Source: an uncultured Actinomycetes bacterium (GTDB lineage Bacteria; Actinomycetota; Thermoleophilia; UBA2241). From it: a DNA stretch of 64,000 bases. This document shows positions 10,393 through 31,504 of this stretch, in pieces. A program made the position numbers and the translations under genes. Under the pieces are notes generated by a model. It did not search any database. It was not told where the DNA came from and saw nothing but the letters and a program-made list of their open reading frames with translations. The stretch is taken from contig CAVRZA010000006.1 in the NCBI GenBank assembly GCA_963725665.1, positions 32,001-96,000 of the forward strand, given 5' to 3'. Position 1 is the stretch's first letter, and each line of letters starts with the position of its first letter.

Positions 10393-11714
10393 CTAGTGCG
10401 CGCTGGGCTCCGTGTACTTCTCGCAGGCGCCGGTACGCCGTAAGCCCGTGGCCGAACATCTGCTCGGCGTCGGCGAGCCGCCCGGCGTGCGGAGCGATGT
10501 CGAGGGCGCCGTCGCGTGTGCAGCGCTGGTAGGTGACGGTCTTGAGGAACTTGCCGACCCAGAGGCCACCGGTGTAGCGCGCAGCCTTCTCGGTCGGCAG
10601 GGTGTGGTTCGTGCCTATGGCCTTGTCGGAGAAGGCGATGGTCGCCTCCTCGCCGACGCACAGCGTGCCGTAGTTGCGCAGCCGGTCGAGCGTACCACTC
10701 CGGGTCGGCGGTCTGCACCTCGAGGTGCTCGGGCGCGTACTCGTCGGCGACCGCGACGGCTTCGTCGCGGTCGCCGACGACCACGACCTCGCCGCAGTCG
10801 CGCCAGGAGATCTCCGCGACCTCGCGTGTCGGCAGCTCCTCGAGCTGGCGACCGACCTCGGCGAGCACGGCCTCTGCCATGCCGCGCGAGAGGCTCACGA
10901 GCCACGCCGGCGACGTCGGGCCGTGCTCCGCCTGGCCCAGCAGGTCGGCCGCCACGATGACCGGGTCGGAGGCCTCGTCGACGATGATGAGGATCTCCGT
11001 GGGGCCGGCGAGCAGGTCGATGCCCACATCGCCGAAGAGCTGCCGCTTGGCCTCGGCCACGTACATGTTGCCGGGCCCCGAGATGAACTCGACCGGCGCG
11101 TAGCGTTCGGCGCTTTCCCCGTCGCCCGCGGCTCCTCGACCCTCGGCACCGTACGCCATGAGCGCGAGCGCCTGCACGCCGCCGACGCACCAGATCTCGT
11201 CGGCGCCGGCAAGCGCCATCGACCACAGCATCTCCGGGTAGATCCCCTGCTTCTTGTACGGTGGCGCGCAGGCGACGACGCGATCGACGCCGGCCACCTT
11301 GGCCGTGAGGATGCTCATCTGGGCCGACATGAGCATGGGGTACTTGCCGCCGGGGATGTAGGCGCCGGCGTTGGCGACGGGAATCTGCTTCTGCCCGAGG
11401 AAGACCCCGGGACGCGTCTCGACCTCGAAGTCGGTCATGCTCTCGCGCTGCAATCGGGCGAAACGCTCGATCTGCGCGTGCGCGAAGTCGAGCGACGCCA
11501 GCACGTCGGGCGCGATGCCGGCCTTCGCCCGCTCGATCTCATCCGCGGGCACCTTGAACGAGGGCGGATCCCAGCCATCGAAGCGACGCGAGTACTCGCG
11601 CACAGCCTCGAGGCCTCGCGCGCGCACGTCGGCGAGGATCGCCGACACCGTCTCGCGCACCGCGGCGACGTCGGCGGGGGGCTTCGGGGGCGCCTTCTTC
11701 AGGTACTCGCGCAT
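10393..11714 (-). CDS. Histidinol dehydrogenase paralog (HpsN/HisD2-like), frameshift near 10685
   Basis: MREYLKKA start, GAYIPGGKYP, GPGNMYVAEAKR, AGPTE, QAEHG, APEHL; second frame gives DKAIGTNHTLPT...YTGGLWV. End approximate. Confidence 0.85.
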
Positions 11715-11820
11715 GTCGACTATCGTCCTTTCTTCCGCTAGCCGAAGTCCCTGTGCGTCGGTGCGCCGGGACGCGTTTCAGGCGCGTCCCGGCGCACCAG
11801 GATCTTCGCGAGCATCGACC

Positions 11821-12933
11821 TCAGACGGTTTCGGTGGACGGAACCGAGGCGTCGCTGGGCGGCGACTCCTCCCGCTCGGGCGGCGCCTCGATCACGAGGC
11901 CGCGCCTCACCGGGAACAGGTGCACGTCCCAGCGCTCGACGACCCAGCCCCAGATCCCCCGCGGCGCCTTCGTCGCCATGACGACGGCGATCGCGCCGAG
12001 CAGCAGCATGTACGTCGAGCCGTACTGGCTGAGGGTCTGCTGCAAGACGAAGAAGATCACGGCCCCGATGATGGGCCCCTCGATGCTGCCGAAGCCGCCG
12101 ATGACGACGATGAAGATGGCAAATGCCGTCCAGTTGATGCTGAACGACGCCGCCGGCTGGATGAAGATCAGGTTCAACGCGACGACCGACCCCATGGCGC
12201 CGCAGCCGAAGGCCGCGACCACGAAGACGATAAGTTTCAAGCGGAAGATGTTCACGCCTGAACTCTGCGCCGCCAAGTCGTTGTCGCGGATGGCCGTCAG
12301 TCCGAGGCCGAGCTTCGAACGCAACAGGAAGTAGACGATCAGGACCGAGCCGACCGCAACGGTAAGCCCGATCCAGTAGGTGCCTGGTATGCGCGTCTCG
12401 AACGGCATGCTGGCGGCGGACATGACGCTTGTGCCCGACCCGCCTCCCGTTGCCTGGATGTTCGACACGATGATGCGCATGATCTCGGCGAACACCCAGG
12501 TGCCGATGGCGAAGTAGCCGCCCCTCAGGCGAAAGAGCAGCGGCGCGATGGGCAGCGCGATGAGAGCGGCGATCGCCGCCCCGCCGATGACCGACACGAA
12601 GGGGTGTATGTTGAGTCGATCGGCGAAGAACCACAACCCGTAGGCGCCGATGCCGATGAACGCTTGCTGACCGACTGAGATCAGCCCCGCATAGCCTCCC
12701 AACAAGTTCCACATCTGCGCCAGGGCGACCAAGCCGAAGAGCGTGATCAGCGTCCTCGACGTGCCCACCTGCGCCCAGAGCGGGACGGAGGCGAGCGCGG
12801 CGACGACGATCACGCTGACGACGAGCACGTAGAGGTGCATCCGCCTGGAGCGGGCGACGCGGAACCCTGGGATCCTCAAGCCGCTGCCGGCCGCGATGTG
12901 GCCACCGCCAGCCAGTGTCGCCGGTTCACTCAC
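11821..12933 (-). CDS. livM: Branched-chain-type ABC permease (LivM family)
   Basis: WNLLGGYAGLISVGQQAF, AIRDNDLAA, IGGFGSIEGP; GTG start overlaps the livH stop. Confidence 0.88.
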   Translation of the reverse strand: MSEPATLAGGGHIAAGSGLRIPGFRVARSRRMHLYVLVVSVIVVAALASVPLWAQVGTSRTLITLFGLVALAQMWNLLGGYAGLISVGQQAFIGIGAYGLWFFADRLNIHPFVSVIGGAAIAALIALPIAPLLFRLRGGYFAIGTWVFAEIMRIIVSNIQATGGGSGTSVMSAASMPFETRIPGTYWIGLTVAVGSVLIVYFLLRSKLGLGLTAIRDNDLAAQSSGVNIFRLKLIVFVVAAFGCGAMGSVVALNLIFIQPAASFSINWTAFAIFIVVIGGFGSIEGPIIGAVIFFVLQQTLSQYGSTYMLLLGAIAVVMATKAPRGIWGWVVERWDVHLFPVRRGLVIEAPPEREESPPSDASVPSTETV

Positions 12934-13802
12934 GTGGTCACCGTCCGGGCGAAGAAGCCGCTCGGCCGCAGCGCCAAGACGAACAGGAAGACGGCATGAC
13001 CGCAGAGGATCCCCCAGCCGGTGCCGAGGGCCTGTGCGCCGACTACCTGGGCGACGCCGAGGACGACTCCGCCCAGCAACGTGCCCCAGAGGGAGCCCAT
13101 GCCGCCCATGATGACCGCCTCGAAGGCGAAGATGAGGTTGAAGGGGCCGGTCGAGGGATCGAACGTGGTGCGGATGGCGAGCGCGATGCCGCCGATGGCG
13201 ACGGTCACGAGGGCCACGGCCATGGCGAGTGAGTAGATGTGCCGGTTGTCGATGCCCATCAGCTCGGCCGCCTCGCGATCGTCGGAGGTCGCTCTGAACG
13301 CCTTGCCGAGCTTTGTTCGGTTCAAGAACAGCTGCAGCGTGGTGATGCTCACGATTGCAGTGACGAACACGAGCAGCGGGTACCAGCCGACTGCGACCTG
13401 GTCTGAGATGCGTATGCTGGCGTTCTCGACGGCGCCCGCGTCGAGGCCGCGCGAGTCGGCCGAGAAGGCGACCAGTAGCCCGTTCTGGATGATGATCGAC
13501 AACCCGAAGGTGACCACGATGGGCCGCGTGTCGTCGGTGCCCAGGGTGAAGTTGAGGAGTCCCCGCTGGAGCACGTAGCCGATGGCGAACATGAGGACGA
13601 TCGTCAGGAGGCTCGACCACAGGAGCGGCAGATGGGCCGATTGCACCAGAGCCAAGGCGATGAAGGCCGCGAGGATGCCCAGGTCGCCGTGTGCGAGGTT
13701 GACCAGACGCATGACGCCGAAGACCAGGGCGAGGCCGACGGCGAAGAGTGCGTAGAGCCCTCCCAGAAGGATCCCCTGCAGTACGATGTTGACCCAGTTC
13801 AT
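12930..13802 (-). CDS. livH: Branched-chain-type ABC permease (LivH family)
   Basis: GILLGGLYAL...FGVMRLVNLAHG, GGMGSLWG. Confidence 0.9.
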   Translation of the reverse strand: MNWVNIVLQGILLGGLYALFAVGLALVFGVMRLVNLAHGDLGILAAFIALALVQSAHLPLLWSSLLTIVLMFAIGYVLQRGLLNFTLGTDDTRPIVVTFGLSIIIQNGLLVAFSADSRGLDAGAVENASIRISDQVAVGWYPLLVFVTAIVSITTLQLFLNRTKLGKAFRATSDDREAAELMGIDNRHIYSLAMAVALVTVAIGGIALAIRTTFDPSTGPFNLIFAFEAVIMGGMGSLWGTLLGGVVLGVAQVVGAQALGTGWGILCGHAVFLFVLALRPSGFFARTVTT

Positions 13803-13806
13803 GCCC

Positions 13807-14505
13807 TCACATCCCGAAGTAGGCGGCCGTGATGTCGTCGGAACTCAACTCGGCGGGTTCGCCCTGCAGCGAGATCCGGCCCTCGAGGAAGCAGGCGACG
13901 CGGTCGGCAACGGTGAGAACGTGCTGGACGTCCTGCTCGACGACGAGGATCGTGGTGCCCCGTGCCGGCAGGGCCTCCATGGCTTCGTAGATACGCTTGA
14001 TGACAACGGGCGCGAGGCCCAGCGAGACTTCATCGAGAAGCACAAGGCGCGGGTTCGACATCAACGCTCTGCCGATGGCGAGCGCCTGCTGTTCGCCGCC
14101 TGAGAGGCTCGCCGATTGTCGCTTTGCCAGCGGCTTCAAGAGCGGAAAGAGCTCGTACACCGATGCCACGTCCCAGTCGCCCTGGCGCCCCCCGTAGGCA
14201 CCGATCTGCAAGTTCTCTTCGACCGTGAGGCTCGGAAAGACGCGCCTCCCTTCGGGCACCATCGAGATACCCATCCCGACCCGTTTGTGGGTGCTCAGGT
14301 GGTCGATCGACTCCCCGTCGAAAAGCACCTTTCCCGAGCGGGGGCGAAGCAACCCGGCTATCGTCCTGAGCATCGTCGACTTGCCGGCGCCGTTGGCCCC
14401 GATGACGGCGAACGTCTGGCCCTCTTCGACCTTGAATGAGATCGAGAAGAGGGCCTGGAAGTCGCCGTAGAAGACGTCCACGCCCTCCAGCTCGAGGATG
14501 CTCAT
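13807..14505 (-). CDS. livF: ABC ATPase (LivF family)
   Basis: GANGAGKS, LSGGEQQ, LLDEVSLGLAP. Confidence 0.92.
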   Translation of the reverse strand: MSILELEGVDVFYGDFQALFSISFKVEEGQTFAVIGANGAGKSTMLRTIAGLLRPRSGKVLFDGESIDHLSTHKRVGMGISMVPEGRRVFPSLTVEENLQIGAYGGRQGDWDVASVYELFPLLKPLAKRQSASLSGGEQQALAIGRALMSNPRLVLLDEVSLGLAPVVIKRIYEAMEALPARGTTILVVEQDVQHVLTVADRVACFLEGRISLQGEPAELSSDDITAAYFGM

Positions 14506-15227
14506 ACCGGGGTGCCCCCCATGTAGCAGGCCTGCACCTCGTCGCTGCGCATGACCTCTTCCGGCTCTCCCTCTGCGATCTGGCGCCCGAAGTTGATGGC
14601 GAAGATCCGGTCGACGGTGGCCAGCAGGGCGTGGACGATGTGCTCGATCCAGACGATCGAGATGCCCTCAGCGTGCAGGTCGCGGATGGTCGTGATCAGC
14701 TCCTCGACCTCCACCTCGGTGAGCCCGCCGGCGATTTCGTCAAGCAACAGCACGAACGGATCGCCGGCCAGCGCCCGAGCGAGCTCGAGACGCTTGCGGT
14801 TGAGGAGCGTGAGCTTGCCCGCCTGATGGTTCGCCTTGTCGGTCAACCTCGTCAGCTCCAGCGTCTCGACACAGCGCTGGTAGCTCGCGCGCTCGGTCGT
14901 GCCGCGTGCGTATGCGGCGCACACGAGGACGTTCTCGAACACGCTCATGGCGGTGAACGGCTTGGGGATCTGGAACGTCCGTCCTATGCCGTTGCGGCAA
15001 CGTTTCTGCCGCGAGAGGTGAGTGATGTCGTCGTTGTTGAAGAGGACCCGACCGTCGTCGGGCCGATGGACGCCGGTGATGAGGTTGAACAAGGTCGTCT
15101 TACCGGCGCCGTTCGGCCCGACGATGCCCAGGGCTTCGCCCTCGGTCAGCTGGATGCTCAGATCGTCGATCACCAGCACGCCGCCGAACGACTTCGTCAG
15201 CCCCCTGGTCTCGAGGACGGTGGTCAC
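14502..15227 (-). CDS. livG: ABC ATPase (LivG family)
   Basis: GPNGAGKTT, LLDEIAGGL, IEH. Confidence 0.92.
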   Translation of the reverse strand: MTTVLETRGLTKSFGGVLVIDDLSIQLTEGEALGIVGPNGAGKTTLFNLITGVHRPDDGRVLFNNDDITHLSRQKRCRNGIGRTFQIPKPFTAMSVFENVLVCAAYARGTTERASYQRCVETLELTRLTDKANHQAGKLTLLNRKRLELARALAGDPFVLLLDEIAGGLTEVEVEELITTIRDLHAEGISIVWIEHIVHALLATVDRIFAINFGRQIAEGEPEEVMRSDEVQACYMGGTPV

Positions 15228-15317
15228 AAGTGACCACCGTCCTCGTCCCCCAGGCTCTTCTCGGAGCCGTTGGGCTGGAGAACGCCCTGGGCTTGCACGG
15301 TCCGGTTCACGTCACTC

Positions 15318-16739
15318 TCAGGCGTAGCTCATCGGTGCAAGCTTGCCGTTCTCGGGGATAGTGACGTTGAACGGCGCCGCCGCCGCGTGCGACGTGTCCA
15401 CGAGCAGCAGGTCGAACGGGTACTTCGTGCCCTTGGTCCACATGCCGCCCACGAGCACCGTGCGGCAGACGTTCGGGACCGGGTTCAGATCCCCTCCCGA
15501 CCACGTGACCTTGCCCGCGATGGTGTCCATGTCGGTCGCCTTGATGGCGTCCACGACGACTTGCTTGTCGTCGACGTTGGTGGCGCGCTTGAGGGCGTCG
15601 ACGACGACCTCGAAGACGGCGTAGTGCAGCAGTGGCTGTGCCCACTCCTTGCCGTTCGAGGCGGTCCAGGCGTCGGCCAGCTGCTGGCAGGTCTGACCGG
15701 AGAGCGACGACTTGAAGGGGTGCCAGGGCGACCACCAGCACTCGGTGGTGAGCCCGTAGCCGATGGGGCCGATCGCTTCCATCTCGGCCGGGAAGAGCAG
15801 GGCCTTGCCGACGGTGGCCGCAACCGGTTTGAACCTCTGCTGGTAGGACTGCTTCCAGAAGTTGACGAAGTCCGGCGGGATGAAGACGCCGCTCAGAATC
15901 TCACAGCCGGCCGCCTTGAACTTGGTGATCTGCGGCGTGTAGTCCTGCGTGTTGGGCAGGAAGCGGCCGCCGTCGACGAACGTATACCCCGCCGCCTTGA
16001 GCATCGGAGGCTGCCCCGTCTTGGGGTCGGCCCAGCCCTTGCCGTCGGCGTCGTTGGGCCACATCTCGCCGACTCGCTTGTTCGTCGGGAGCTGGTCCCA
16101 CATGCCGGTGAACACCGCCGTCACGTCTTCGAGGCCCCAGAAGAAGTGATAGGTCCACTTGAAGGGCACCGGGTTGGCCGGATCCTTCTGACGCCCGAAA
16201 AAGTATGGCTGCCATGGACAGTCGTTGGAGACGCAGGGAACGCCGAACGATTCGGCCGTGGAGGACACGGGGTTCACCGTGTCCGGCGTCGAAGCGACCA
16301 TCATGATGTCGACGCCGTCGTTGGTGATCAGGTCCCCGGCGACCGTCCCAGCACGCGTGGTGTCCGACTGGGAGTCCTTCACGATGATCTCGATCGGGTG
16401 AGTCTTGCCATCGCCGCAAGCGACACCGCCCTTCACGGCGGCCTTCCACTGTTCCACGATGAACGTGTCAAGCTGACCGAATGTGGCCAAGGGGCCCGTC
16501 AGCGGCGTCACGAAGCCGACCTTGATGGCGCGGCCCGTGGCGCTGGCGCTCGCCCCACCGCCACCGCCGCCGCTGCTGCCGCAGGCGGAGAGGGCGCCGC
16601 TCAGTCCGCCCAATGCGCCCACCGTGAGGCCGGTCGCGCCGGCGACCTTGAGAAAGTCGCGCCGGCTGATCGGCTTGCGGGTCAGCGGAGTCTCCTCCGA
16701 GCCCGAAGCCCCTGTGGACCTGTCATGGTCCTCTGCCAT
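15318..16739 (-). CDS. Tat-exported lipoprotein ABC substrate-binding protein (LivK-like)
   Basis: Strong SD GGAAGGAGGAGG before ATG 16739; SRRDFLK twin-arginine motif, LSAC lipobox, IKVGFVTPLTGPLA. Confidence 0.88.
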   Translation of the reverse strand: MAEDHDRSTGASGSEETPLTRKPISRRDFLKVAGATGLTVGALGGLSGALSACGSSGGGGGGASASATGRAIKVGFVTPLTGPLATFGQLDTFIVEQWKAAVKGGVACGDGKTHPIEIIVKDSQSDTTRAGTVAGDLITNDGVDIMMVASTPDTVNPVSSTAESFGVPCVSNDCPWQPYFFGRQKDPANPVPFKWTYHFFWGLEDVTAVFTGMWDQLPTNKRVGEMWPNDADGKGWADPKTGQPPMLKAAGYTFVDGGRFLPNTQDYTPQITKFKAAGCEILSGVFIPPDFVNFWKQSYQQRFKPVAATVGKALLFPAEMEAIGPIGYGLTTECWWSPWHPFKSSLSGQTCQQLADAWTASNGKEWAQPLLHYAVFEVVVDALKRATNVDDKQVVVDAIKATDMDTIAGKVTWSGGDLNPVPNVCRTVLVGGMWTKGTKYPFDLLLVDTSHAAAAPFNVTIPENGKLAPMSYA

Positions 16740-17033
16740 GCCTCCTCCTTCCCCTGGTCCCGCGGCCCCTCGGCTCTTCAACGAGCCGATGGCTGCCGCG
16801 AGTGACCCCCGCTGGTTCCGATTTCTACCTGGGCGGACGCCGCACCTGGCCTCCACCGCTTCTGGTCCTGACGTATCCGCACGGACGAAGCGGATGACTT
16901 GCCCGCCATACGGACGCCAGCACCCGCGATACGGGCATGATACCGTCGGCCCTGGTCCAGTCAAGCACCCCCTTTGGTCATTTCGGCCCCCTGCGAACAA
17001 GGGACTGCAGCCCTCGTCGAGGAAGCCGGACCC

Positions 17034-17867
17034 TCACGTTTGCCCCACCAACTGTGGCGATAGGCGCAGCCGCTCGACCACCTCGGCCACGGTGGCCGGC
17101 TCGCGTCCGACGGCACGCGCCACCCCGACGAGCTGCTCGACGAGCTGGGCGTTCGAGTCCGCCGGCACGCCAGGCTCGAGAAGCAGCGTGTCCTCCATAC
17201 CGGTGCGCGCGTTGCCGCCCATCGCGAGCCCAATGGTGGTCATCGGCCGATTGGCCTTGGCCACGCCGATGACCTGCCAGCTCGTGCCCGGCGGCAACTC
17301 GCGCACCAGGTAGGCCAGCAGGGCCGGGTCACCGGTCATGCCGCCGCGCACACCCATCACGAACGAGATCTGCAGCGGCTCTGCGAGGAGCCCCTTCTTC
17401 AACAGCTCGAGGGCCACCACGATGTGGCCGGTGTCGTAGACCTCGAGCTCCGGCTTGACCCCGAGCTCGAGCATGCGCTCGGCCAGCTGCATCATCTGTA
17501 CGGGAGGATTGCGGAACTCGCCCTGCCCGAAGGTCATCGTGCACGGGTTCAGGGTCGCCATGGCCGGCCGCACCTCGACGATCTTCATGCGATCTTCGTA
17601 CTCGAACTCGAGCCCGACCCCCGTCGACAGCTGGATGATCGCCGGACAGGCCTCACGCACGAGATCCACCGTGCGCCTGGCGATATCGAGGTCGGCGGTC
17701 CGTCGACCCTGGTCGTCACGAAGGTGGATGTGGACGACCGCCGCTCCGGCCTCGAACGCCCCCCGCGCGCTCTCGGCGACCTCGGCCGGCGACCCCGGCA
17801 GCGCGGGGTTGTCGGCCTTGGTCGCCATGGGGCCCGTGAGCGCGGCCGTGATGATCGGGTTCGGCAT
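17034..17867 (-). CDS. Beta-keto acid cleavage enzyme (BKACE/DUF849); candidate triacetate-cleaving enzyme
   Basis: IITAALTG, HIHLRD Zn motif, STG, KPELEVYD, RTGMEDT. Confidence 0.88.
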   Translation of the reverse strand: MPNPIITAALTGPMATKADNPALPGSPAEVAESARGAFEAGAAVVHIHLRDDQGRRTADLDIARRTVDLVREACPAIIQLSTGVGLEFEYEDRMKIVEVRPAMATLNPCTMTFGQGEFRNPPVQMMQLAERMLELGVKPELEVYDTGHIVVALELLKKGLLAEPLQISFVMGVRGGMTGDPALLAYLVRELPPGTSWQVIGVAKANRPMTTIGLAMGGNARTGMEDTLLLEPGVPADSNAQLVEQLVGVARAVGREPATVAEVVERLRLSPQLVGQT

Positions 17868-17879
17868 GCCGCCCCCTTC

Positions 17880-18230
17880 TCAGACGTCCCGGGGCTCGGG
17901 ATAGGGGATCGCCACCAGCATCGACGCCGGCGAGTTCGTGCGGTTCTCGATGGCCCGCGACTCGTTGGGTGCCAGGTAGCACGAATCCCACTTCTTCAAC
18001 GTCGTCTCACCCTCGGCGGTGATGACGACGACCTCACCTTCGAGCACGAAGTAGACCTTCTCCACCGGCGTCGCATCCTCGAAGGCTCCGCCTTTGGGCA
18101 AGAAGTGCGAGAGGCCCATCCAGAACGTGCGCGTCTTGCTGACGTCGAAGCCCTGTAGGCGCAGGCCGTAGCATTCGTGGTGCTTGGGCGCCTCGTAGGG
18201 CGGCGCCTCGTCGTAGCGCGTGACCTCCAT
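17880..18230 (-). CDS. Cupin-domain protein
   Basis: SHFLPKGGA...EKVYFVLEGE...DSCYLAPNESR cupin motifs. Confidence 0.85.
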   Translation of the reverse strand: MEVTRYDEAPPYEAPKHHECYGLRLQGFDVSKTRTFWMGLSHFLPKGGAFEDATPVEKVYFVLEGEVVVITAEGETTLKKWDSCYLAPNESRAIENRTNSPASMLVAIPYPEPRDV

Positions 18231-18232
18231 CG

Positions 18233-21740: not shown

Positions 21741-21883
21741 CCCGCGAATACTGCATTGCGGAACTGCCCATCCGTGATGCAGGACATCATTGCAGCACAC
21801 GAGGCGCGAATCAAGTACGAGTCCGACGCTCGTCGTCGAGCCTGAACGCCGCTCGCCGAGGCACGCGCGGTGCGTGCCGAACG

Positions 21884-22684: not shown

Positions 22685-24880
22685 CTAGTCGCCGTCGCCG
22701 GAGAGACCGGTGGCGTGCCGCCGGCGGTAGTCTGCGTACCAGGCCATGCGGTCGAGCGCGAACAGAGCGGACCGCGGCGACGGAAGCACGATCGGATCGT
22801 AGGGGCCGTCGCACGGGAAGAGCGCCTGGCGGATCGGCGAGTCGTAGACGTTGATGATGGGCTTGCCGGTGGCCTCCATGAGTCCCGCGACGTAGGTGAG
22901 GAACCCGCTCTCCCAGGTGCTGAAGCCGTCGTACTCGCCGCTCGCGCTTGCGGGCCGCACGTCGTCGCCGGTGTTGGGCACGCCGAGCACCGAGAGCACC
23001 GCTATCGCGTCGAAGGCGTCGTTCTCAGCCACCGCGGAGAGCACCCGGCTCCCCACGTCACCGCCGGCCGACGCTACCATGTCGAGCGGGTTGTGGCGGC
23101 TCCAGAACGGCGGCAGCAGCCCGTCGAGCTCCTCGACGAGCGCCGGCGGCAGATCGGGCAAGACCAGGCCGCGGCGCGCGGCCTCGTCGGCCGCGAGCAC
23201 GCCGGCGCCGCCGCCGTTGGTCACGATCGCCACGCGGCGGCCGCGCGGCAGCGGCAGATGCGCCAGCGCGAGAGCCAGGTCCAGCGCCTCGTCGGTGGCC
23301 GTACAGGTGACCACGCCGGCCTGCCGGGCCGCCGCCTCGTAGACGGCCGCGGAGCCCGCCATGGCGCCGGTGTGCGAGGCGGCGGCCCTGCCGCCGACCT
23401 CGGTGAGACCGCCACGCACCGCTACGACCGGTTTGACGGCCGCGGTCCGCCTCGTGACATCCAGGAAGCGGCGCCCGTCGTCGATGCCTTCCACGTACAT
23501 CAGAACGCACTCGGTGCGCTCGTCGGTGCGCAGGTAGTCGAGCACGTCGATGACGCTCACCTGAGCCTCGTTGCCGACGCTGAGGAACTTGTCGATGCCG
23601 ATGGCGCGCCGCTCGGACGCCTTGACGATCTGCACGCCCAGGTTACCCGACTGCGAGACCAGGCTCAGCGGGCCCTGCTGCGGGTGCAGCGTGATGAAGC
23701 CGGTGCCGTGCAGCCGCGTCTCGTTCGAGATCACGCCCATGCAGTTGGGGCCGATCACCGTGATCCCCAGCTCGGCAGCCGCATCCGCCATCTCCCGCTC
23801 CGCCTGCCGGCCCTCATCGCCGGTCTCCGAGAACCCGGCGGCCACGGCCACCACGGCCGGCACGCCGCGTCGCGCGCACTGCTCGAGGACGGACGTGACC
23901 CGCTCGCCGCTGACGGCGAGAAGTGCCAGATCGGGCGCTTCGGGCAGCTCCTCGACGCTCGTGTACACCGGCAGGCCGAAGTACGTGCCGCCGCGCGGGT
24001 TCACCGCGTAGACCGGACCCTCGAAGCCACCGTCGAGGATGTTCTTCAGCGCCGAGCCGCCCCACTTCACGACGTCGTCGGAGGCGCCCACGACGGCGAC
24101 CGACCGGGGGGCGCACACGGCCCGCAGGTCGGGCTGGAAGCCCCGGCCCGGCGCGGGCGCGGTAGCGGCCGACGCGCCGCCCGAGAGGACCACCAGCGCG
24201 TCGGCCGCCACCGGATGATCACCGGCGATGATGAGCGGGTTGAGGTCGATCTCGGTGACCTGTGGATAGTCCGCGGCGATACGAGCGACCGCCAGCACGA
24301 CGCCGGCCAGCTTCGCGCGGTCGACGGCCGGCTGGCCGCGAAACGCTCCCAGGAGGCGCTTCGAGCGGATTAGCTCGAAGAGCTCGTCGACATCGCGCTC
24401 GTCGAGAGGGGGGATCGCGAGCGCGATGTCGCCGAGCACCTCAGTCATGACGCCGCCCAGACCGAAGGCCACCACAGGACCGAAGGCGGCGTCGCGCTTC
24501 ATGCCTACCATGAGCTCGCGGCCGCCGGTCACCATCTCCTCGACGAGCACCGCATCGAGCGCGTCGCCGGCCCGCTCCGCGAGATCGCCGTAGGCGACGA
24601 CCACCTCTTCCGGCCCGCGACGGTCGAGAAGCACCAGCCCCGCCTCGGTCTTGTGGTGGATGCCCTCGCCCACGGCCTTGAGCGCCACCGCGCCGTCGAC
24701 CGACGCGGCAAGTGCGACCGCCTCGGCCTCCGAGCGCGCAAGGCCGCCCTCAGGCACCGGGACACCATAGGCGGCCAGCAGGCGTTTCGCCTCGTGCTCA
24801 TCAAGCGCGGAGCGCCCCGCCACGAGCGCCGCCTCAACGATGGCGGATGCTTCCGCGGGCTGCCGTCTCGCTGTCTGCAT
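22685..24880 (-). CDS. ADP-forming acetate/acyl-CoA ligase (ATP-grasp first, then CoA-binding domains)
   Basis: EHEAKRLLAAYG, HKTEAG, EIDLNPL, VAVVGAS, GPNCMG, SQSG, AASHTGAMAG phospho-His, NPLD. Confidence 0.9.
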   Translation of the reverse strand: MQTARRQPAEASAIVEAALVAGRSALDEHEAKRLLAAYGVPVPEGGLARSEAEAVALAASVDGAVALKAVGEGIHHKTEAGLVLLDRRGPEEVVVAYGDLAERAGDALDAVLVEEMVTGGRELMVGMKRDAAFGPVVAFGLGGVMTEVLGDIALAIPPLDERDVDELFELIRSKRLLGAFRGQPAVDRAKLAGVVLAVARIAADYPQVTEIDLNPLIIAGDHPVAADALVVLSGGASAATAPAPGRGFQPDLRAVCAPRSVAVVGASDDVVKWGGSALKNILDGGFEGPVYAVNPRGGTYFGLPVYTSVEELPEAPDLALLAVSGERVTSVLEQCARRGVPAVVAVAAGFSETGDEGRQAEREMADAAAELGITVIGPNCMGVISNETRLHGTGFITLHPQQGPLSLVSQSGNLGVQIVKASERRAIGIDKFLSVGNEAQVSVIDVLDYLRTDERTECVLMYVEGIDDGRRFLDVTRRTAAVKPVVAVRGGLTEVGGRAAASHTGAMAGSAAVYEAAARQAGVVTCTATDEALDLALALAHLPLPRGRRVAIVTNGGGAGVLAADEAARRGLVLPDLPPALVEELDGLLPPFWSRHNPLDMVASAGGDVGSRVLSAVAENDAFDAIAVLSVLGVPNTGDDVRPASASGEYDGFSTWESGFLTYVAGLMEATGKPIINVYDSPIRQALFPCDGPYDPIVLPSPRSALFALDRMAWYADYRRRHATGLSGDGD

Positions 24881-24954
24881 GGTCGCTCCCTCGCGGTGCC
24901 TGGATCGCTCCCTCGCGGCTTGCGTATCGACCCAACGCGGTCCCCTTGGGCCAA

Positions 24955-24993: not shown

Positions 24994-25118
24994 ACGCACT
25001 CGTGCGTGCGCGGGAGAGAGCCGGTTGAGCAGGTGAGCGCAGTGCAGGCAGGCGAGGGCCCGGCGGACAAAGCAGCGTCGTGCGAGCAGGTGAAAGCGGT
25101 GCCGACAGGGGAGCGCAG

Positions 25119-25853
25119 GTGACGGACGAGGACATCCACGGCACGCCGCCGGCGCCCGACACCGCCAGCGAGAGCGCGGCGCGGTACGTGCGCTCGCTCA
25201 TCTTCTGGGGCGAGCTCGGTCCCGGCGACAAGCTGCCCCCGGCGACAGAGTTGGCGACCCGTCTGGGCATCTCGCGCGTGACGCTGCGCCTGGCTCTCAA
25301 GTCGCTGCAGAGCACGGGCTACATCGTCACCACGCGCGGCGCTCATGGGGGGTCGCGGGTGAGCGACGCGGCCGCCCTACAGCGGTGCTGGAGCCAGTGG
25401 ATGGCGGTCCACAACGGCGAGCTCGACGACATCTTCGAGTTCCGCACCACGATCGAGAGCCGGCTGGCCGCGCTGGCGGCGCAGCGGCGTACTGCCAAGG
25501 AGATGACCACTGTCGCGCGCGCGCTCGCGCGCGAGCGCGGGGAGCACAGGCGCTCGTCGCTGTTCCGAGCCGACGCCGACATCCACCGCAGCATCGCCAG
25601 GGCGGCCCACAGCCCTCGTCTCGCCGCAGCCATGAACGCCGTGCGCGCCCAGCTCTTCCTGCCGGTTGACCAGGAGCTCTTCGAGGAGAGCGAGGCCGGC
25701 GTCTACGCCTCGCACGCGGCCATCGTGGCCGCCATCCGCGACCGCGACCCAGAGCGCGCCGCTCGGGCGGCCAGAGAGCACACCGAGAGGGTGCGCGGGC
25801 TCATCGACCGGGCGCTGGAGGCCGCACAGGTCCGCGAGCGAGCGCTGATGTGA
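25119..25853 (+). CDS. GntR/FadR-family regulator with FCD domain
   Basis: LGPGDKLP, LGISRVTLRLAL, RGAHGG, DADIHRSIA. Start uncertain (25080 or 25119). Confidence 0.88.
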   Translation: MTDEDIHGTPPAPDTASESAARYVRSLIFWGELGPGDKLPPATELATRLGISRVTLRLALKSLQSTGYIVTTRGAHGGSRVSDAAALQRCWSQWMAVHNGELDDIFEFRTTIESRLAALAAQRRTAKEMTTVARALARERGEHRRSSLFRADADIHRSIARAAHSPRLAAAMNAVRAQLFLPVDQELFEESEAGVYASHAAIVAAIRDRDPERAARAAREHTERVRGLIDRALEAAQVRERALM

Positions 25854-25878
25854 GGTCGTCCATGCCACAAGGAGGCGG

Positions 25879-27232
25879 ATGGTCGTCACGGCGCTCAACG
25901 GACGCAGGGCTCGTGAACGCCACTCCGACGCACATCAACATCACCATCAGCTTCTATCGCGGTTGGCTGGTCACGTTTGCGGCCGCCACGATGGGCCTGT
26001 TCCTCGGCATCCTGTACGTCTGGAGCGTGGTCAAGGCCGGCATCCCCGCATCCTGGGGCTGGAGCAACGCCGACATGGCGCTACCGTATTCGGTGATGTG
26101 CGTCCTGTTCGCGGCCACCATGATCCCGGCGGGCCGGCTGCAGGACCACTACGGACCGCGCATCGCCATCCTGCTGGGCGGGTTTCTGGTCGGCCTGGGA
26201 TGCATCGTGTGCGGGGCGGGAGGCTCGTCGCTGGCCGCCTACGTGGTCGGCTTCGGGGTCCTGCACGGCAGCGGGGTGGGCTTCGGGTACTCGGCCATGA
26301 CGCCCGCGTCGGTGAAGTGGTTCGCACCCCGGCGCACCGGCCTGATCGCGGGCATCGTGGTTGCCGGGTTCGGTCTAGCGCCGGTCGTCCTCGCACCACT
26401 GGTCACCTGGCTTCTGACGGCCTTTCAAACAACGACCGCGTCGGGGGCGGTCGAGAAGGGGGTCTCCGCCACCATGATCACCCTGGGCATCGTCGCCTGG
26501 CTGGTGGTCGGCGGCCTGACCCTGCTGGTCCGCAACCCTCCCGAAGGGCACCTGGTGCAACCACCCCAGGAGTTGCGGCAGGCCTTCGAGCACTCGGCCG
26601 GCAGTGAGTTCACCTGGCGCGCCATGCTGCGCACGACGCAGTTCTGGCTGCTGTTCGTCATGTTCTTCTGCGGGGCCGCCGCTGGGCTCATGTTCATCAG
26701 CGTGGCCTCCGACCTGGGCAAGCGGGCGCTTGGATCGTGGGCGTTCCTGGCCGTGATGGTCCTTGCGTTCGGCAACAGCAGCGGGCGCATCCTGGCGGGT
26801 GTAGTCTCGGACAGGATCGGACGCCAATGGACCCTGTTCGTCGAGTTCGTCTGCCAGGGCCTGGTGGTCGCCGTCCTCTACCGGCTCAGCGGCGGCGGCG
26901 TGTGGCCGGTCATCCTGACCGTCGTGTTCCTGCTGGGGTTCAACTACGGCGCCAACCTGGCGGTGTTCCCGGCCGCCTGCAAGGACTACTTCGGCCTGCG
27001 GAGCTTCGGGCTCAACTACGGCTGGCTGTTCGCCGCTTTCGGCCTGGCGGGGCTGACCATGCCTTGGGTCAACGGCCTGATCAGGGACGCGACCGGATCG
27101 TCCGACTTGTCGTACGCGATCATCATCGGGCTGATGGTGGTGGCAGCCGTCCTGGCTCAGGTCAGCCGGCTCCTGGGACCGCCGAACGCGAGACCGAAAT
27201 CCGCCGTGTCCGTGGGCGAAGGAGAAGAGTAG
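25879..27232 (+). CDS. OFA-family MFS transporter (oxalate/formate or monocarboxylate antiporter-like); probable N-terminal indel
   Basis: GILYVWSV, GRLQDHYGPR, KWFAPRRTGL, DYFGLRSFGLNYG. SD AAGGAGG precedes ATG 25879 in another frame. Confidence 0.85.
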
Positions 27233-28045
27233 ATGGCCATTGTCACGATCTCGAGAGGCACCTACACGGGCGGCATCGCGGTGGCCGAGGGGCTTGCGGT
27301 AGCACTGGGGCACCCTTGCGTGAGCCGCGAAGTCGTCATAGACGCCGCGCGGGACTCCGGCGTCCCCGAAGCCGAGCTGCAGTCCACGCTCGAGGAGCCG
27401 CCGCACTTCTGGGAGAAGACACCGGGAAAGACCGCGGCGTCCCTGAACCTCGTGAGAGCGGCACTGCTCAAGCGGGCCCGTGACGGTGACCTCGTCTACC
27501 ACGGCTACGCCGGGCACCTGCTGCTGAGCGGCATCGCACACGTGTTGCGCGTTCGGGTCATCGCCGATCAAGAGTCTCGCATCAGAGCGGCGATGGAGGA
27601 CAAGGGCATGGACTATCGAGCGGCGGCCGATTTCGTCAAGAAGCTCGACAACCAGCTCATCAAGTGGACCAGGTTCCTCTACGGCGTCGAGTGGCAGGAC
27701 CCCTCGGTCTACGATGTAGTCCTGAACCTGGAGCACATGAGCGTCGACAGCGCCGTGCAGACGATCGCGCAGATCACCCGGCTGGACGACTTCAGACCGA
27801 CGGCGGACTCCCGCAAGGCCTTCGAGGACCTTCTCCTGAGCAGCAACGTCTGGGCGGCGCTGACCGCGGACAAGCGGACCCGCTCGGCGAACGTGCGCGT
27901 CGCGGCCGACGACGGCGTCGTCTTCATCACCGGACTGGCCGACAACGAGCGCACGCTGACGGCCGTGCAGGAGGTGGCTGCGGCCATACACAGCGTCAGA
28001 GAGGTGCAGAGCGAGGTCGGCATCGGCCGTACCTGGCAGTGGTGA
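27233..28045 (+). CDS. Cytidylate-kinase-like family protein with C-terminal BON domain
   Basis: IVTISRGTYTGG, DPSVYDVVLN, C-terminal VRVAADDGVVFITG...VREV; TAGATG coupling to the MFS gene. Confidence 0.8.
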   Translation: MAIVTISRGTYTGGIAVAEGLAVALGHPCVSREVVIDAARDSGVPEAELQSTLEEPPHFWEKTPGKTAASLNLVRAALLKRARDGDLVYHGYAGHLLLSGIAHVLRVRVIADQESRIRAAMEDKGMDYRAAADFVKKLDNQLIKWTRFLYGVEWQDPSVYDVVLNLEHMSVDSAVQTIAQITRLDDFRPTADSRKAFEDLLLSSNVWAALTADKRTRSANVRVAADDGVVFITGLADNERTLTAVQEVAAAIHSVREVQSEVGIGRTWQW

Positions 28046-28104
28046 CGAACGGGACGGGGCGGGCCCGCCGCGCACAGGCGGCGGGCCCGCCCCGTCCCGT
28101 TCGT
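28045..28104. terminator. Perfect 27-bp inverted repeat between convergent genes
   Basis: ACGAACGGGACGGGGCGGGCCCGCCGC-GCACAG-GCGGCGGGCCCGCCCCGTCCCGTTCGT. Confidence 0.8.
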
Positions 28105-28115
28105 GACCGCTGGTC

Positions 28116-28953
28116 TTACGAGGCCGTCAGGACGATCTCACCGAGGTCGACGTCGGTCTGCGTCTTGACGTCGGACCGCTGCGGCACGTAGCCGTCGTGG
28201 CTGACGGTGATGCGGTAGGCCGCGTTCCTGGCGAGGCCCTCGAACTCGAACTGGCCGAAGACATCCGACGTCGTCTCCGCACGCACGCCCTCGCCCTCGA
28301 GCACGACCTTGATGCCCGCAGCGCAGGCGTCGGCGGCGTCGTCGAGGACGACCTCGCCGGCCACGAAGCGCTTGGGGATGCCGTGGTAGCGCACCAGCGG
28401 CGAGCACCCGTACTCCGGGTGCAGCGCCTCGGTCTTCAGGGCCGCCACGCGCTGGGAGATCTCCGACTGCGGATCGTCGAGGTCGCCGAACACCATGGCG
28501 CCGGTCGGGCACGACTCGACGCACCGCGGCTGCTTCTCGCCGGCGTCGAGCCGGTGGGCGCAGAGGGTGCACTTCTGCGGGATCTCGAGCTCCGCGTTCC
28601 AGAACACGACCCGGTAGGGGCAGGCCTGCACGATCTGCCGCTGGCCCTTGGCCTTGTCCGGGTCGATGACGACGATGCCGTCCGGCCGCCGGTAGACGGC
28701 GCCGTCCGTAGCGACGTCCATGCACGGCGCGTCCTCGCAGTGCAGGCAGGGGATGGCGACGTAGTCCACCTTGGGACGCGGGTAGGCGCCGCGCTCGATC
28801 TCCTTGACCTGCATCCAGAACTGCCCGTGCAGCGGCTGCGCGGCCGAGTAGCCCGGGTAGTCGTTGTTGTCGTGCTCGTCACGGCACGCCAGGAAGCAGT
28901 TGTGGCAGCCGTTGCACCTGGTCGACATCGATCAGCATGCTCAGTCGCGTCAT
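28116..28953 (-). CDS. bthL: Pyrogallol transhydroxylase beta-like Fe-S subunit (3 clusters plus C-terminal beta-sandwich); indel near the start
   Basis: CNGCHNCFLACRDEH, ERGAYPRP, CLHCEDAPC, DPDKAKG (no Cys), CPY, KCTLCAH, RCVESCP, C-terminal SDVFGQFEFEGL...VDLG. Confidence 0.85.
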
Positions 28954-28956
28954 CGA

Positions 28957-31504
28957 TCAGCCCTCCCACTTCTCGATGTCGATCAGGCACGAGTTGGGCG
29001 TCATGCCGGGGGCGTTCTTGCTGAGCATGCGCGAAGGCGTGAGCAGGTTGACGCAGCCGCCCTTGTCGATGGAGTCGGCCTTGCCCGGGATCAGCGGATC
29101 GTACTTGGCGGACGAGGCGTAGCTGTGCATCACGCCGGGCCGCACGCGCTCGGTGACGACGGCGCAGCAGAGCACCGACGCCCGGTCGTTGTAGAGCCGG
29201 ACGATGTCGCCGTTGCGGATGCCCCGCGCCTGCGCGTCGTCGGGATGGATGCGCGCCGGCCACCAGGCGTAGCCGTCCTTCTTGATGCGGTGGACGGGGA
29301 TGTCGTCCAGCCAGTCGGTGTGCTTGTCGTAGTGGGAGTGGAAGGAGAAGCGCGGATGCGGCGAGATGAGCTGCAGCGGATACTTCTCGAAGAGCTCGGT
29401 CGAGTGATGGCCCTCCCAGCTCGGGATGTAGTGCGGGATAGACCGGCCGCTCCTCGTCGTCCGGGAAGTGCGCCTTGAGGCTCTCGCGAGACGAACTCGA
29501 TCTTGCCGCTGTAGGTGCCGAGCTCGTGGGCCTTGTCGGTGCCGCGCTTCGGGTTGCTCGGGTCCGGGGTGTCGCACGTCGCGCCCCTCGGCGAACCAGC
29601 GCATCGCCGGGGTGGGCTTGTAGTTCTCCGGGCAGCGTTGATGATGTGGTAGCCCTTCCTGTCGAACTCCTCCCAGTCGACGAACTTGGGCAGGTCGGAG
29701 ATCTCGAAGAACGAGCCTGACCCAGTCGATCTCGGTCTTGCCGCCGTCGGTGAAGTCCTCGTCGAGACCGAGCCGCTCGGAGAGGTCGGCGAAGATCTCG
29801 TAGTCCGACTTCGACTCCCACAGCGGCTCGATGCACTTCTTCTCGCGCACGATGACGCGGAAGTTGTAGCCGCGTGCTGCGCGTTCGTGGTGTACCCGCC
29901 GCAGGCGCCCCACTCGCCGATGTCGTCGCGCTCGAGGTTGGTGCAGGCCGGCAGGATGACGTCGGCGATCCGCGTCTCGCCGTCGACACCAGCAGTCCTG
30001 GTTGACGACGAATTCGAGCTTGGGGCTCTGGTACATGCGCACCCACTTGCGTGGTGTCCGTCATGGTGCCCATGAACGAGCCGCCGTAGCGGTAGAACAG
30101 CTTCACCTCCGAGCAGCCCGGCATGGGATAGATGAAGTGCGTGAACTGCTGCTCGAGCGACTGGCCGCAGAAGCCGTCGCCGTACCAGCTGACCGGCGGT
30201 TCGAGGATCGCGTCCGGGCACGGTCAGCCGATAGAGGCGCTGCTTGGTCGGGTTGTCCGGGAGGAGGTCGGCGACCAGCTTGGACAGCGCGATGCGGCCC
30301 GTCGGGATCGGCATAGGCCGGGAACCAGATGTCGTTGTCGCGCGGCGCGCCCATGGCGGTGCCCCAGATGCTGACGCCCGGGCTTGCCCAGCCCCTGCAT
30401 CGCCTGCAGCAGGACCATCAGGCGCGCCCATTCGGTGCCGTAGGCGGTGCGGCAGGCGCCGCCTTCGCCGCCGCGGGCGCCACGCCGAGAGCATGGTGCG
30501 CTTGCGCGGCCCACTCGCGCGCCAGCGCGCCGATGATGCGGGCCTGCACGCCGCACTCCTCGGCCGCCCACTCCGGGGTCTTGGGCACGCCGTCGCTCTC
30601 GCCCAGCACGTAGGCGCTTGAACTCGTCGAAGCCGACGGTGCGCTCGGCGACGTAGTCCTTGTCGTAGGTGTCCTCGGTGATCCACACATGGGCGATCGC
30701 CATGCGCCAGCGCCGCGTCGGTGCCCGGGCGCGGGGCGATCCATTGGCCGTCCGTCGCGGGCGCCGTGTAGTTGTGGAAGGGGTCGATGAAGACCATCTT
30801 GACGCCCTTCTCCTTCAGCCACTGGCGCCAGATGCGCCGACTCGTGGCCGGTGTAGATGCCGCGGGTCGTGTCCGGGTCGTTCGACCAGAAGACGATCAT
30901 CTCGGCGTGCTTGAGCGCGTCCTCGAGCATGTCGTAGGGCTCGGGCATGCCGAGCCGCCAGTAGAAGCCGTAGGTGTGGGTCGCGCCCCAGTGCCAGCCC
31001 TCCCAGCTGTCGGGGTTGTCGAGCACCGGCGTGTAGCTCGAGCAGGTTCATGAAGCGCGAGAACGCGCCCATCTTGTAGCCGACGATGCCCCAGTTGTGG
31101 TGCGAGGAGGTGAGCGCCGCTGATCGCCGACCCGCCGTAGGTGTTCTGCACGCGCTTGATCTCGCCCGCGACGATGTCGAGCGCCTCGTCCCAGGAGATG
31201 CGCTCGTAGGGCGACTTGCCGCGGTTCTGCGGGTTGCGCTCGCCGTTCGGGTCGAAGTCGACGCGCTTCAGCGGGTACTTGATGCGGTCGTCGGAATAGA
31301 GGCGCCTGCGCTCGGCGAGCACGAACGGCGCGAGGTTGAACTTCTTCGGCGGCGAGTACGTCTTGCCGTCGGCCTCGATCGTCCACGGCCTGAAGTCGGT
31401 CTCGTCGGCGACGAGCGGACGGATGCGCACGACCTTTCCGTCCTCGACGTAGACGCTGATCGGGCCCGCAGTTGGTGCAGTTGGTGAAGACCGCTCTCAG
31501 TCAT
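28957..31504 (-). CDS. athL: Pyrogallol transhydroxylase alpha-like Mo-bisPGD enzyme (copy 1), many frameshifts
   Basis: Pieces across frames: GPISVYVEDGKVVRIRP, RIKYPLKRVDFDPNGERNPQNRG, SSHHNWG, NPDSWEGWHWG, LEDALKHAEMIVFWSNDP, GGACRTAYGTEWAR, LISPHPRFSFH, GGCVNLLTPSRMLSKNAPGM. Confidence 0.9.

Follow-up and report, generated by a model that had tools for sequence, protein, structure and literature searches.

A candidate phloroglucinol ring-cleavage operon of mycobacterial type in an uncultured Thermoleophilia bacterium

Clostridium scatologenes degrades phloroglucinol with a set of enzymes encoded in one gene cluster (Zhou et al., mBio 2023, PMC10470551). In that paper, phloroglucinol reductase (PGR) is a short-chain dehydrogenase/reductase (SDR) with a kcat of approximately 22–25 per second and a KM of 0.3 mM in C. 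scatologenes, dihydrophloroglucinol cyclohydrolase (DPGC) is a Mn-dependent enzyme of the cyclase family, (S)-3-hydroxy-5-oxohexanoate dehydrogenase (TfD) belongs to the 3-hydroxyacyl-CoA-dehydrogenase (3HCDH) family and takes the free acid as its substrate, and triacetate acetoacetate-lyase (TAL) is a beta-keto acid cleavage enzyme (BKACE). The same paper reports 12,225 clusters, including those of Mycobacterium, proteobacteria, sulfate reducers and Archaeoglobus, and a separate study describes Rv1714–Rv1716 as approximately 40% identical to the Clostridium cluster (PMC5894108). Here we describe a cluster of this kind in 64,000 nucleotides of DNA (the window) from an uncultured Actinomycetes bacterium (Thermoleophilia; UBA2241; assembly GCA_963725665.1, contig CAVRZA010000006.1, positions 32,001–96,000 of the forward strand).

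An uninterrupted string of minus-strand genes in the window, from 24880 down to 10353, includes members of all four enzyme families, and a gene pair of the AthL/BthL (pyrogallol transhydroxylase) family lies nearby. We consider it probable that these genes comprise an IclR-controlled operon of the mycobacterial type that serves to import phloroglucinol, or a compound very close to it, and to cleave its ring, that the AthL/BthL pair is separate and belongs to a paralogous clade, and that the breaks in the AthL frame are assembly errors. An earlier annotation made from the letters alone (the sequence-only reading) had proposed a complete route from pyrogallol through phloroglucinol to acetate. 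The locus that it picked out is real and was correctly spotted, and its ring-cleavage reading is largely right, including the matching of the SDR, cyclase, 3HCDH and BKACE families to pathway steps, which agrees with PMC10470551; its claims about the transhydroxylase, ATP formation and novelty are overstated. Because the window has a high G+C content (approximately 67%), genes were called by third-position GC (GC3) together with Pfam. The solved reductase 5g4k, the Kce protein 2y7d and the 3-hydroxybutyryl-CoA dehydrogenase (HBD) 6aa8 served as sequence anchors, and the C. scatologenes enzymes were compared through their families and described residues.

The candidate ring-opening enzyme retains the features by which a DPGC is recognized. 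CsDPGC carries Trp20 and Tyr22, two residues apart, in place of the Ile and Leu of isatin hydrolase (PMC10470551), and the window cyclase has W27-P-Y29 at the matching positions. The motif WPYF is present in all 81 cyclases compared (the window and the 80 loci described below). Its metal-binding block, HCTTHADAPAH, fits HxxTHxDAPxH; across 14 distant homologues H56, T59, H60 and A63 never vary, and D62, P64 and H66 almost never do. The protein is 61–70% identical to cyclases from canonical clusters and 61–63% identical to those of Mycobacterium gordonae, Mycobacterium simiae and Alteromonas portus, species whose cyclases are listed as DPGCs in Supplementary data 3 of PMC10470551; the lengths of the two mycobacterial proteins (276 and 274 amino acids) match entries there.

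Diagnostic residues have also been described for the dehydrogenase and the BKACE. According to PMC10470551, CsTfD keeps the catalytic Ser, His and Asn of its family and has lost the equivalents of the CoA-contacting Lys56 and Asn221. The window 3HCDH protein has the same pattern relative to Clostridium acetobutylicum HBD (6aa8; residues hand-counted from the alignment), with Ser117, His138 and Asn188 kept, Lys56 replaced by Glu and Asn221 by Arg, and its best match in the PDB is a free-acid dehydrogenase, 4om8. CsTAL is described in the same paper as having Trp16 in place of Glu14 of Kce, the residue that binds the amino group. The window BKACE, which matches Kce 2y7d with 211 bits, has Met14 at this position (the numbering offset from 2y7d to Kce is inferred).

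To place these enzymes in context we aligned the window cyclase with five representatives drawn from a HMMER search of the whole library, and scanned 185,579 species genomes with the peptide pattern [GR]DxV[IVL][IV]N[TC]GW; matches were confirmed by tblastn. The 80 closest loci (L001–L080) have cyclases that are 61–91% identical to that of the window; none of the 80 is clostridial. The four with the most similar cyclases (89–91%; L001–L004 below) come from Thermoleophilia or Actinomycetota metagenome-assembled genomes (MAGs). Neighbours were sought within 8 kb of the cyclase by tblastn with the window proteins (E ≤ 1e-8, at least half of the query covered), and 51 of the 80 loci have flanks of at least 4 kb on both sides. 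The counts, for all loci and for those with full flanks, are as follows.

SDR: 73/80; 49/51
Cupin: 68/80; 42/51
IclR: 57/80; 41/51
3HCDH: 51/80; 38/51
BKACE: 43/80; 33/51
Similar binding protein: 16/80; 13/51
BthL: 4/80; 3/51
AthL: 3/80; 2/51
Acyl-CoA ligase: 2/80; 1/51

The gene set around the cyclase thus recurs, in most of the 80 genomes, beyond what chance would produce, and SDR, 3HCDH, BKACE and cupin occur together in 31 of the 51 fully flanked loci. The cyclase–3HCDH–BKACE–SDR set is syntenic with the M. gordonae, M. simiae and A. portus clusters listed in PMC10470551, and it is also found in aerobes such as Mycobacterium and Sphingomonas.

In the window, Pfam finds every gene type of the one-directional set named in the sequence-only reading (IclR, SDR, 3HCDH-family, cyclase, cupin, BKACE and an ATP-binding cassette (ABC) importer), all on the minus strand, as well as the ADP-forming type of ligase that had been noted nearby. 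The genes of the string, in the order in which they are transcribed, and those that flank it are the following (ORF, open reading frame; TAT, twin-arginine translocation).

22685–24880, minus strand: NDP-forming acyl-CoA synthetase, first gene of the string (Pfam ATP-grasp_5, CoA_binding_2, Succ_CoA_lig, Ligase_CoA_2)
21884–22648, minus strand: second SDR, SDR2 (Pfam adh_short_C2)
20912–21814, minus strand: IclR-family regulator (Pfam HTH_IclR, IclR_C; longest ORF, with the true start probably further in)
20031–20828, minus strand: SDR1, candidate phloroglucinol reductase (Pfam SDR)
19046–20017, minus strand: 3HCDH-family protein, candidate TfD (Pfam 3HCDH_N, 3HCDH)
18233–19045, minus strand: cyclase-family metal hydrolase, candidate DPGC (Pfam Cyclase)
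17880–18236, minus strand: cupin, 118 amino acids (Pfam Cupin_2)
17034–17867, minus strand: Kce-like BKACE, 277 amino acids, candidate TAL (Pfam BKACE, 298.7 bits)
15318–16739, minus strand: substrate-binding protein with TAT signal (Pfam Peripla_BP_6; start inferred at Met88 of ORF 15318–17000)
14502–15227 and 13807–14505, minus strand: two ABC ATPases (Pfam ABC_tran)
12930–13802, minus strand: ABC permease (Pfam BPD_transp_2)
approximately 11821–12930, minus strand: second ABC permease (frame of ORF 11821–13620, from GC3 phase and homology to L003 and L004)
10353–11714, minus strand: histidinol-dehydrogenase-family gene, last in the string (Pfam Histidinol_dh, profile positions 5–323 of 411)
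8733–10085: PASTA kinase (Pfam), adjoining the string
25080–28045, plus strand: three genes (GntR, major facilitator superfamily (MFS), cytidylate-kinase-like/BON) between the operon and BthL/AthL
28116–28955, minus strand: BthL-family Fe–S small subunit (listed ORF 28116–28928; Pfam Fer4_11 and C-terminal CarboxypepD_reg)
28960–31504, minus strand: AthL-family molybdopterin large subunit, clade B (Pfam PF21423, Molybdopterin and Molydop_binding on fragments)

Stops and starts abut or overlap at 19045/19046, 18233–18236 and 14502–14505, as expected of genes that form one operon. The five genes of the importer span 11821–16739. A gene at 11738–12712 was rejected as a misfit to GC3 phase; the frame of ORF 11821–13620 fits. 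Two further genes are kept in the closest relatives: SDR2, upstream of IclR, is 74–83% identical to its copies in L001, L003 and L004, and the histidinol-dehydrogenase-family gene is 75–79% identical to the gene in the same position in L003 and L004.

Several observations weigh against a phloroglucinol operon as we propose it. The first set concerns SDR1, whose best PDB match is 1vl8, a gluconate 5-dehydrogenase from Thermotoga (184.7 bits), with 5g4k in the tenth row (145.5 bits); a fold search with its AlphaFold model (predicted local distance difference test score 91.8) ranks 1vl8 first (40% identity) and 5g4l, an entry titled ‘Phloroglucinol reductase from Clostridium sp.’, twenty-fifth (35%). 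SDR1 and the SDRs of L001–L004 form a separate clade of five rows (SH-aLRT 99), sister (90) to a clade that unites 65 cluster SDRs (99) in a quick maximum-likelihood tree of 81 of 85 rows, made with four rows longer than 330 amino acids left out and no gluconate-dehydrogenase outgroup. Of the 23 signature columns of the canonical clade, 16 differ in this Thermoleophilia group, and two of these changes, R204W and W210Q/P, fall in the substrate loop. In addition, the BKACE carries Met at the position of the CsTAL Trp and falls under the cut-off of every NCBIfam BKACE model; the operon is without a thiolase, CoA-transferase or acetoacetate-activating gene; of the two AthL clades described below the window has only clade B, whereas L003 and L004 carry clade-A AthL–BthL directly upstream of the cluster; and AthL has 20 indels in 2.5 kb, compared with 0 to 2 in each neighbouring gene.

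For SDR1, the sequence-only reading had cited motifs shared with phloroglucinol reductase, and these hold in part. KY.INVNSI.P.VF is common to SDR1 and 5g4k, exactly, and is not in 1vl8; it contains the PxVF motif of the substrate loop, which the two proteins share. NMF..GKVA.VTG also matches, but the Ser of ‘.SGA.G’ is Thr in 5g4k, the SxR...GY stretch differs in length by one residue, and overall identity to 5g4k and 5g4l is 35%. PMC10470551 gives TR(S/N) as the NADPH-pocket motif of PGR, with the exact spacing set out in a supplementary figure; in this region SDR1 has T-S-R-N and 5g4k has T-G-R-N. The Thermoleophilia group shares the remaining 7 of the 23 signature columns, including Y167 and F203. 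By comparison, 5g4k is the top match of the cluster SDRs of a deltaproteobacterial locus (L026; 235.9 bits) and of M. gordonae (174.6 bits), and SDR1 is approximately 40% identical to the mycobacterial SDR; its relatives that carry names are proteins of Thermoleophilia MAGs (64–71% identity). The comparison suggested with the reductase has therefore gone against SDR1, which has low identity to it, better matches elsewhere and a place outside the 65-sequence clade of cluster SDRs, whose best match is 5g4k. SDR1 would nevertheless be the most likely reductase of the operon, either as a very divergent orthologue or as a recruited paralogue.

A divergent reductase could also mean a different substrate. 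We regard it as distinctly unlikely that this Thermoleophilia operon handles another ring compound (an acyl- or alkyl-phloroglucinol, or another cyclic 1,3-dione) with a reductase drawn from a different SDR lineage, although the position of SDR1 and its altered substrate loop would suit such a role. So would the mosaic make-up of the module in close relatives: between the window and L001–L004, cyclase and cupin are 82–93% identical, SDR1 69–74% and 3HCDH 49–70%, and the 3HCDH gene lies ahead of the cyclase in the window, L001 and L002 but after the cupin in L003 and L004. Another tally across close relatives puts the identities at 89–93% for cyclase and cupin, 71–74% for SDR1 and 49–68% for 3HCDH. 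The retention of SDR2 and the histidinol-dehydrogenase-family gene in this lineage points the same way. Against this stand the cyclase, with its invariant WPYF and metal motif and its 61–70% identity to cyclases of canonical clusters, and the cluster SDR of A. portus, which likewise lies outside the canonical clade. As the A. portus cluster is listed in PMC10470551, a non-canonical SDR alone implies no different substrate.

Automated annotation leads elsewhere again, to a gluconate 5-dehydrogenase, a 3-hydroxybutyryl-CoA dehydrogenase, an arylformamidase-like cyclase and a lysine-fermentation Kce with no link to phenols. The best NCBIfam models are indeed PRK08213, gluconate 5-dehydrogenase, for SDR1 (242.3 bits) and Lys_ferment_KCE for the BKACE (271.2 bits), and JGI labels the SDR relatives gluconate 5-dehydrogenase. 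Both scores are under the curated cut-offs (279 and 382), and no NCBIfam model passes its cut-off for any of the five enzymes of the window. The BKACE lacks the amino-group-binding Glu of Kce, the dehydrogenase lacks the CoA-contacting residues, and the locus is syntenic with clusters characterized or listed as phloroglucinol clusters. We find it hardly credible that the automated names are correct.

The BKACE of phloroglucinol-type clusters comes in two forms. Short, Kce-like proteins such as that of the window make up 19 of the 41 aligned locus BKACEs, those of Mycobacterium included, and have Ile, Val or Met at the Glu14 position; Trp occupies it in L026 and L077. Another 20 of the 41 are of a type of approximately 310 amino acids (L006, L023, L024, L027, L035, L036, L041–L043, L045, L047, L051, L053, L056, L058, L059, L066–L068 and L071). 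The pattern suggests that one BKACE type has displaced the other, non-orthologous one inside a single pathway. The A. portus protein (L068), of the longer type, passes the model for 3,5-dioxohexanoate:acetyl-CoA acetone transferase (NF053538; 546.7 bits, cut-off 430), which independently ties these clusters to triacetate; that of L006 falls just under the cut-off (394.1). The window BKACE fails the model (167.7 bits), which fits the alternative, longer type.

On this evidence, the pathway in the window might run as follows. Import of the phenol would fall to the TAT-exported binding protein with its ABC partners, and SDR1 would reduce the phenol with NADPH to dihydrophloroglucinol, the weakest step of the scheme. 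The cyclase-family hydrolase is predicted, from homology and diagnostic residues, to open the ring to (S)-3-hydroxy-5-oxohexanoate, which the 3HCDH-family enzyme, on the same kind of evidence, would oxidize as the free acid to triacetate (3,5-dioxohexanoate). From its family and context, the BKACE would then split triacetate with acetyl-CoA into acetoacetate and acetoacetyl-CoA, and the cupin encoded between the cyclase and the BKACE may be a conserved accessory. AthL/BthL would be a cytoplasmic hydroxyl-transferase of the pyrogallol-transhydroxylase family that may feed trihydroxybenzenes into the operon.

The full fermentation route of the sequence-only reading, in which AthL/BthL supplies phloroglucinol from pyrogallol for ring cleavage by the operon and the ligase makes ATP from acetyl-CoA as acetate is formed, asks more of the locus than this. 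It has in its favour that all the families occur within 21 kb, that AthL-family genes stand beside the cluster in L003, L004 and L026, and that the window also encodes an aldehyde:ferredoxin oxidoreductase (AOR) and other anaerobe-type enzymes. The same cluster, however, occurs in aerobes. Formation of ATP by the ligase is a pure inference, and the comparison of loci does not bear it out: homologues lie within 8 kb of the cyclase in two of the 80 loci, and the four closest relatives have none there. The ligase, in which ATP-grasp comes first and the CoA-binding and ligase domains follow, is generic for its superfamily and scores best in NCBIfam as acetate–CoA ligase, with 407.5 bits against a cut-off of 1200. 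Fermentation to acetate fares no better, since the BKACE products would need a thiolase and an acetoacetate-activating enzyme, which leaves it unsupported by operon content. A frame-broken thiolase lies 30 kb from the operon.

The window also holds a second beta-keto-acid module (45921–53656), with an IclR gene on the plus strand (45921–46793) and the other genes on the minus strand. These encode a second BKACE (52784–53656), which has Phe where Kce has Glu14, an SDR (51965–52729), a thiolase without its N terminus (50754–51818), MoaF (49908–50753), a binding protein (48281–49555) and an Fe-alcohol dehydrogenase (46776–48035). The thiolase of this module could serve acetoacetyl-CoA from the main operon.

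The first step of the proposed route depends on the AthL/BthL pair, for which the family assignment and the region are both real. The BthL-like protein matches BthL of Pelobacter acidigallici (4v4c_B) with 209.5 bits and aligned Cys motifs, and the pair has the two-subunit architecture of transhydroxylase: an Mo subunit free of Fe–S with an AhtL-like first domain, and an Fe–S subunit with a C-terminal CarboxypepD_reg. The large subunit itself is not one open frame. Read through its breaks, it is identical at 716 of 839 residues (85.3%) to an intact homologue of 842 amino acids (P0121), with no in-frame stop. His144, Asp174, Ser175 (the Mo ligand) and Tyr404, which we take to be active-site residues of the Pelobacter transhydroxylase, are kept in both P0121 and the read-through, in line with the full route. 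Arg153 and Trp354 of the Pelobacter enzyme are replaced by Lys and Glu, which speaks against it.

AthL homologues fall into two clades that are 47–53% (approximately 52%) identical to each other. Clade A comprises the proteins of L003, L004 and L026 (57–85% identity within the clade) and clade B comprises P0121, P0138 and P0224, which are 75–85% identical to one another (two of the three have phylum-level names), together with the window AthL, placed there by its similarity to P0121. Against Pelobacter AthL (4v4c_A), P0121, the 85%-identical proxy for the window protein, scores 889.7 bits and the L026 protein, encoded directly beside ring-cleavage genes, 1101.8 bits. Bit scores and between-clade identity do not support orthology of the window AthL to the Pelobacter enzyme. 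The family also includes resorcinol hydroxylase (PMC10100899), a further point against pyrogallol as the substrate.

Genomic position separates the two clades as well. In L003 and L004 the clade-A pair is immediately upstream of SDR2–IclR–SDR1, where the window has its acyl-CoA ligase; the clade-B pair of the window lies 3.2 kb beyond the ligase. Because three plus-strand genes intervene, the pair must be a transcription unit of its own. The AthL/BthL assignment in the sequence-only reading holds at the level of the family only. Taking these points together with the missing thiolase and CoA-transferase and the rare ligase, we consider the full route unlikely. L003, L004 and L026 exemplify the co-location put forward in the sequence-only reading better than the window does: their clade-A AthL–BthL genes lie beside phloroglucinol genes at 1108–4655, 2664 to approximately 6100, and 4413–7963, respectively, in two Thermoleophilia/Actinomycetota MAGs and one deltaproteobacterial MAG.

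A further plus-strand stretch of the window (31838–40215) begins with a divergent IclR gene and a second, distant AthL-like gene (approximately 30% identical to P0121, frame-broken). It continues with a BthL-like gene that has a CarboxypepD_reg tail (35308–36126), an Fe–S protein (36127–37005) and a molybdopterin oxidoreductase with Fe4S4 and NrfD-like parts (37516–40215).

The broken frame of AthL could in principle record decay. Frameshift-aware alignment of P0121 to 31600–28900 (aligned span 31504–28960) gives 20 single-base indels, whereas SDR1, 3HCDH, cyclase and BKACE show no frame change in the same kind of comparison, made for SDR1 with L004, and this concentration in AthL keeps a genuine decaying pseudogene, with loss of the hydroxyl-transfer step at the locus, as a minor rival that we think very unlikely. 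Insertions outnumber deletions 18 to 2, whereas real bacterial pseudogenes tend toward deletion bias, and there is no large deletion. Neighbouring genes are touched as well: BthL has one insertion near 28917, which hides a probable upstream start, SDR2 has one insertion near 22483 and one deletion near 22412 relative to L004, and the histidinol-dehydrogenase-family gene has one insertion near 10688. Frames also break in patches far from AthL, at 40.7–45.6 kb and 56.5–60.3 kb. High protein conservation, the lack of stops and the excess of insertions fit uneven consensus quality better than decay, and assembly errors are the most likely source of the 20 breaks. Homopolymers were rejected as their cause; by eye, the 20 contexts are not obvious homopolymer runs. 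Patches with many frame switches are found at 28900–31600, 40700–45600, 56500–60300, 4845–7209 and 53901–56483, and other stretches are clean. Genes caught in the broken patches include a class-III aminotransferase and an ABC transporter in fragments, a sulfatase whose reading is divided between two frames, and the AOR, apparently fused to an IclR regulator.

The small cupin is the most constant companion of the cyclase after the SDR. The start of its gene and the cyclase stop share 4 nt, and a cupin of approximately 115 amino acids adjoins a DPGC-like cyclase in 68 of the 80 genomes. Y14, H19, P47, Y62, G67, L80, D84, S85, R94, N98 and V108 are invariant, and the usual HxH metal motif is not conserved. 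The best NCBIfam model is of the Rv1717 type (111.2 bits, cut-off 175), and a fold search returned generic small cupins alone (TM1459, RemF and DddK), of which TM1459 is nearest (26–28% identity). A homologous mycobacterial cupin is described in PMC7873859 as a beta-galactosidase; the genes around the cupin suggest that it serves phloroglucinol catabolism instead. We found no literature match for a cupin with dihydrophloroglucinol, and the word ‘cupin’ is absent from the main text of PMC10470551 (one supplementary file of which is not searchable). A bolder combination, which we hold to be rather improbable, would give the pathway of Thermoleophilia and mycobacteria enzyme chemistry not yet described and would make the cupin a fifth pathway enzyme (acting, for example, on a tautomer of dihydrophloroglucinol or triacetate), SDR1 a recruit from outside the reductase clade, and the highly conserved clade-B AthL/BthL a distinct phenol hydroxyl-transferase, with a substrate of its own, instead of a pyrogallol transhydroxylase. 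The near-constant cupin, the non-canonical SDR of Thermoleophilia and the different linkage of the AthL clades were not found in print, and we offer them as leads, not findings.

Turnover of tannin- and flavonoid-derived phenols, under anaerobic or microaerobic conditions, bears on carbon storage in peat and soil and on the ‘enzyme latch’ debate (PMC10470551). The window provides one more example, from Thermoleophilia, of a cluster on record from thousands of genomes, and its main message is confirmatory. Three practical points follow for annotation. Pipelines keyed to the canonical reductase may overlook lineages with a different cluster SDR; family-level calls of ‘pyrogallol transhydroxylase’ merge at least two clades that are 52% identical, of which one alone adjoins ring-cleavage genes in the loci examined; and a small cupin that carries a beta-galactosidase label (PMC7873859) is a near-constant neighbour of the ring-opening enzyme.

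Compared with the C. scatologenes cluster (CsPGR, A0A0E3M5A2; CsDPGC, A0A0E3JZE4; CsTfD, A0A0E3GQA2; CsTAL, A0A0E3M5J5; PMC10470551), the window has the same four enzyme families with a regulator and a transporter. It shares the W-x-Y pair of the cyclase, a 3HCDH protein without the Lys56 and Asn221 equivalents and a BKACE without the Kce glutamate. It differs in an SDR outside the reductase clade, in Met instead of Trp16 of CsTAL, in an ABC importer where C. scatologenes has an MFS transporter, and in an operon that includes a cupin. The sequence-only reading saw novelty in a high-G+C host; PMC10470551 already lists Mycobacterium, so such a host is not new.

AthL/BthL of P. acidigallici (4v4c) resembles the window pair in having two subunits in the same order, with Fe–S Cys motifs and CarboxypepD_reg in the small subunit. 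The window AthL has an AhtL-like first domain, no Fe–S domain and, at the N terminus of the read-through, no visible twin-arginine motif. It is somewhat shorter (approximately 842 amino acids, compared with 875 in Pelobacter) and differs in its clade and at residues 153 and 354. The acyl-CoA ligase has the ATP-grasp, CoA-binding and ligase domains of the NDP-forming acetyl-CoA synthetase (ACD) family and differs in its ATP-grasp-first order.

The locus also resembles the mycobacterial cluster, of the Rv1714–Rv1719 type. The mycobacterial SDR matches the solved reductase best, unlike SDR1, and most Mycobacterium loci have no adjoining ABC importer, unlike the window. Phloretin hydrolase is reported in mycobacterial clusters in PMC10470551, and none was seen among the Pfam matches of the window. 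In six mycobacterial loci (L046, L063–L065, L073 and L075), SDR, 3HCDH, cyclase, cupin and BKACE are ordered as in the window, with IclR at the opposite end. The gene set is the same in both, including the cupin, the IclR regulator and a BKACE of the short, Kce-like form in which the Glu14 position is taken by a hydrophobic residue.

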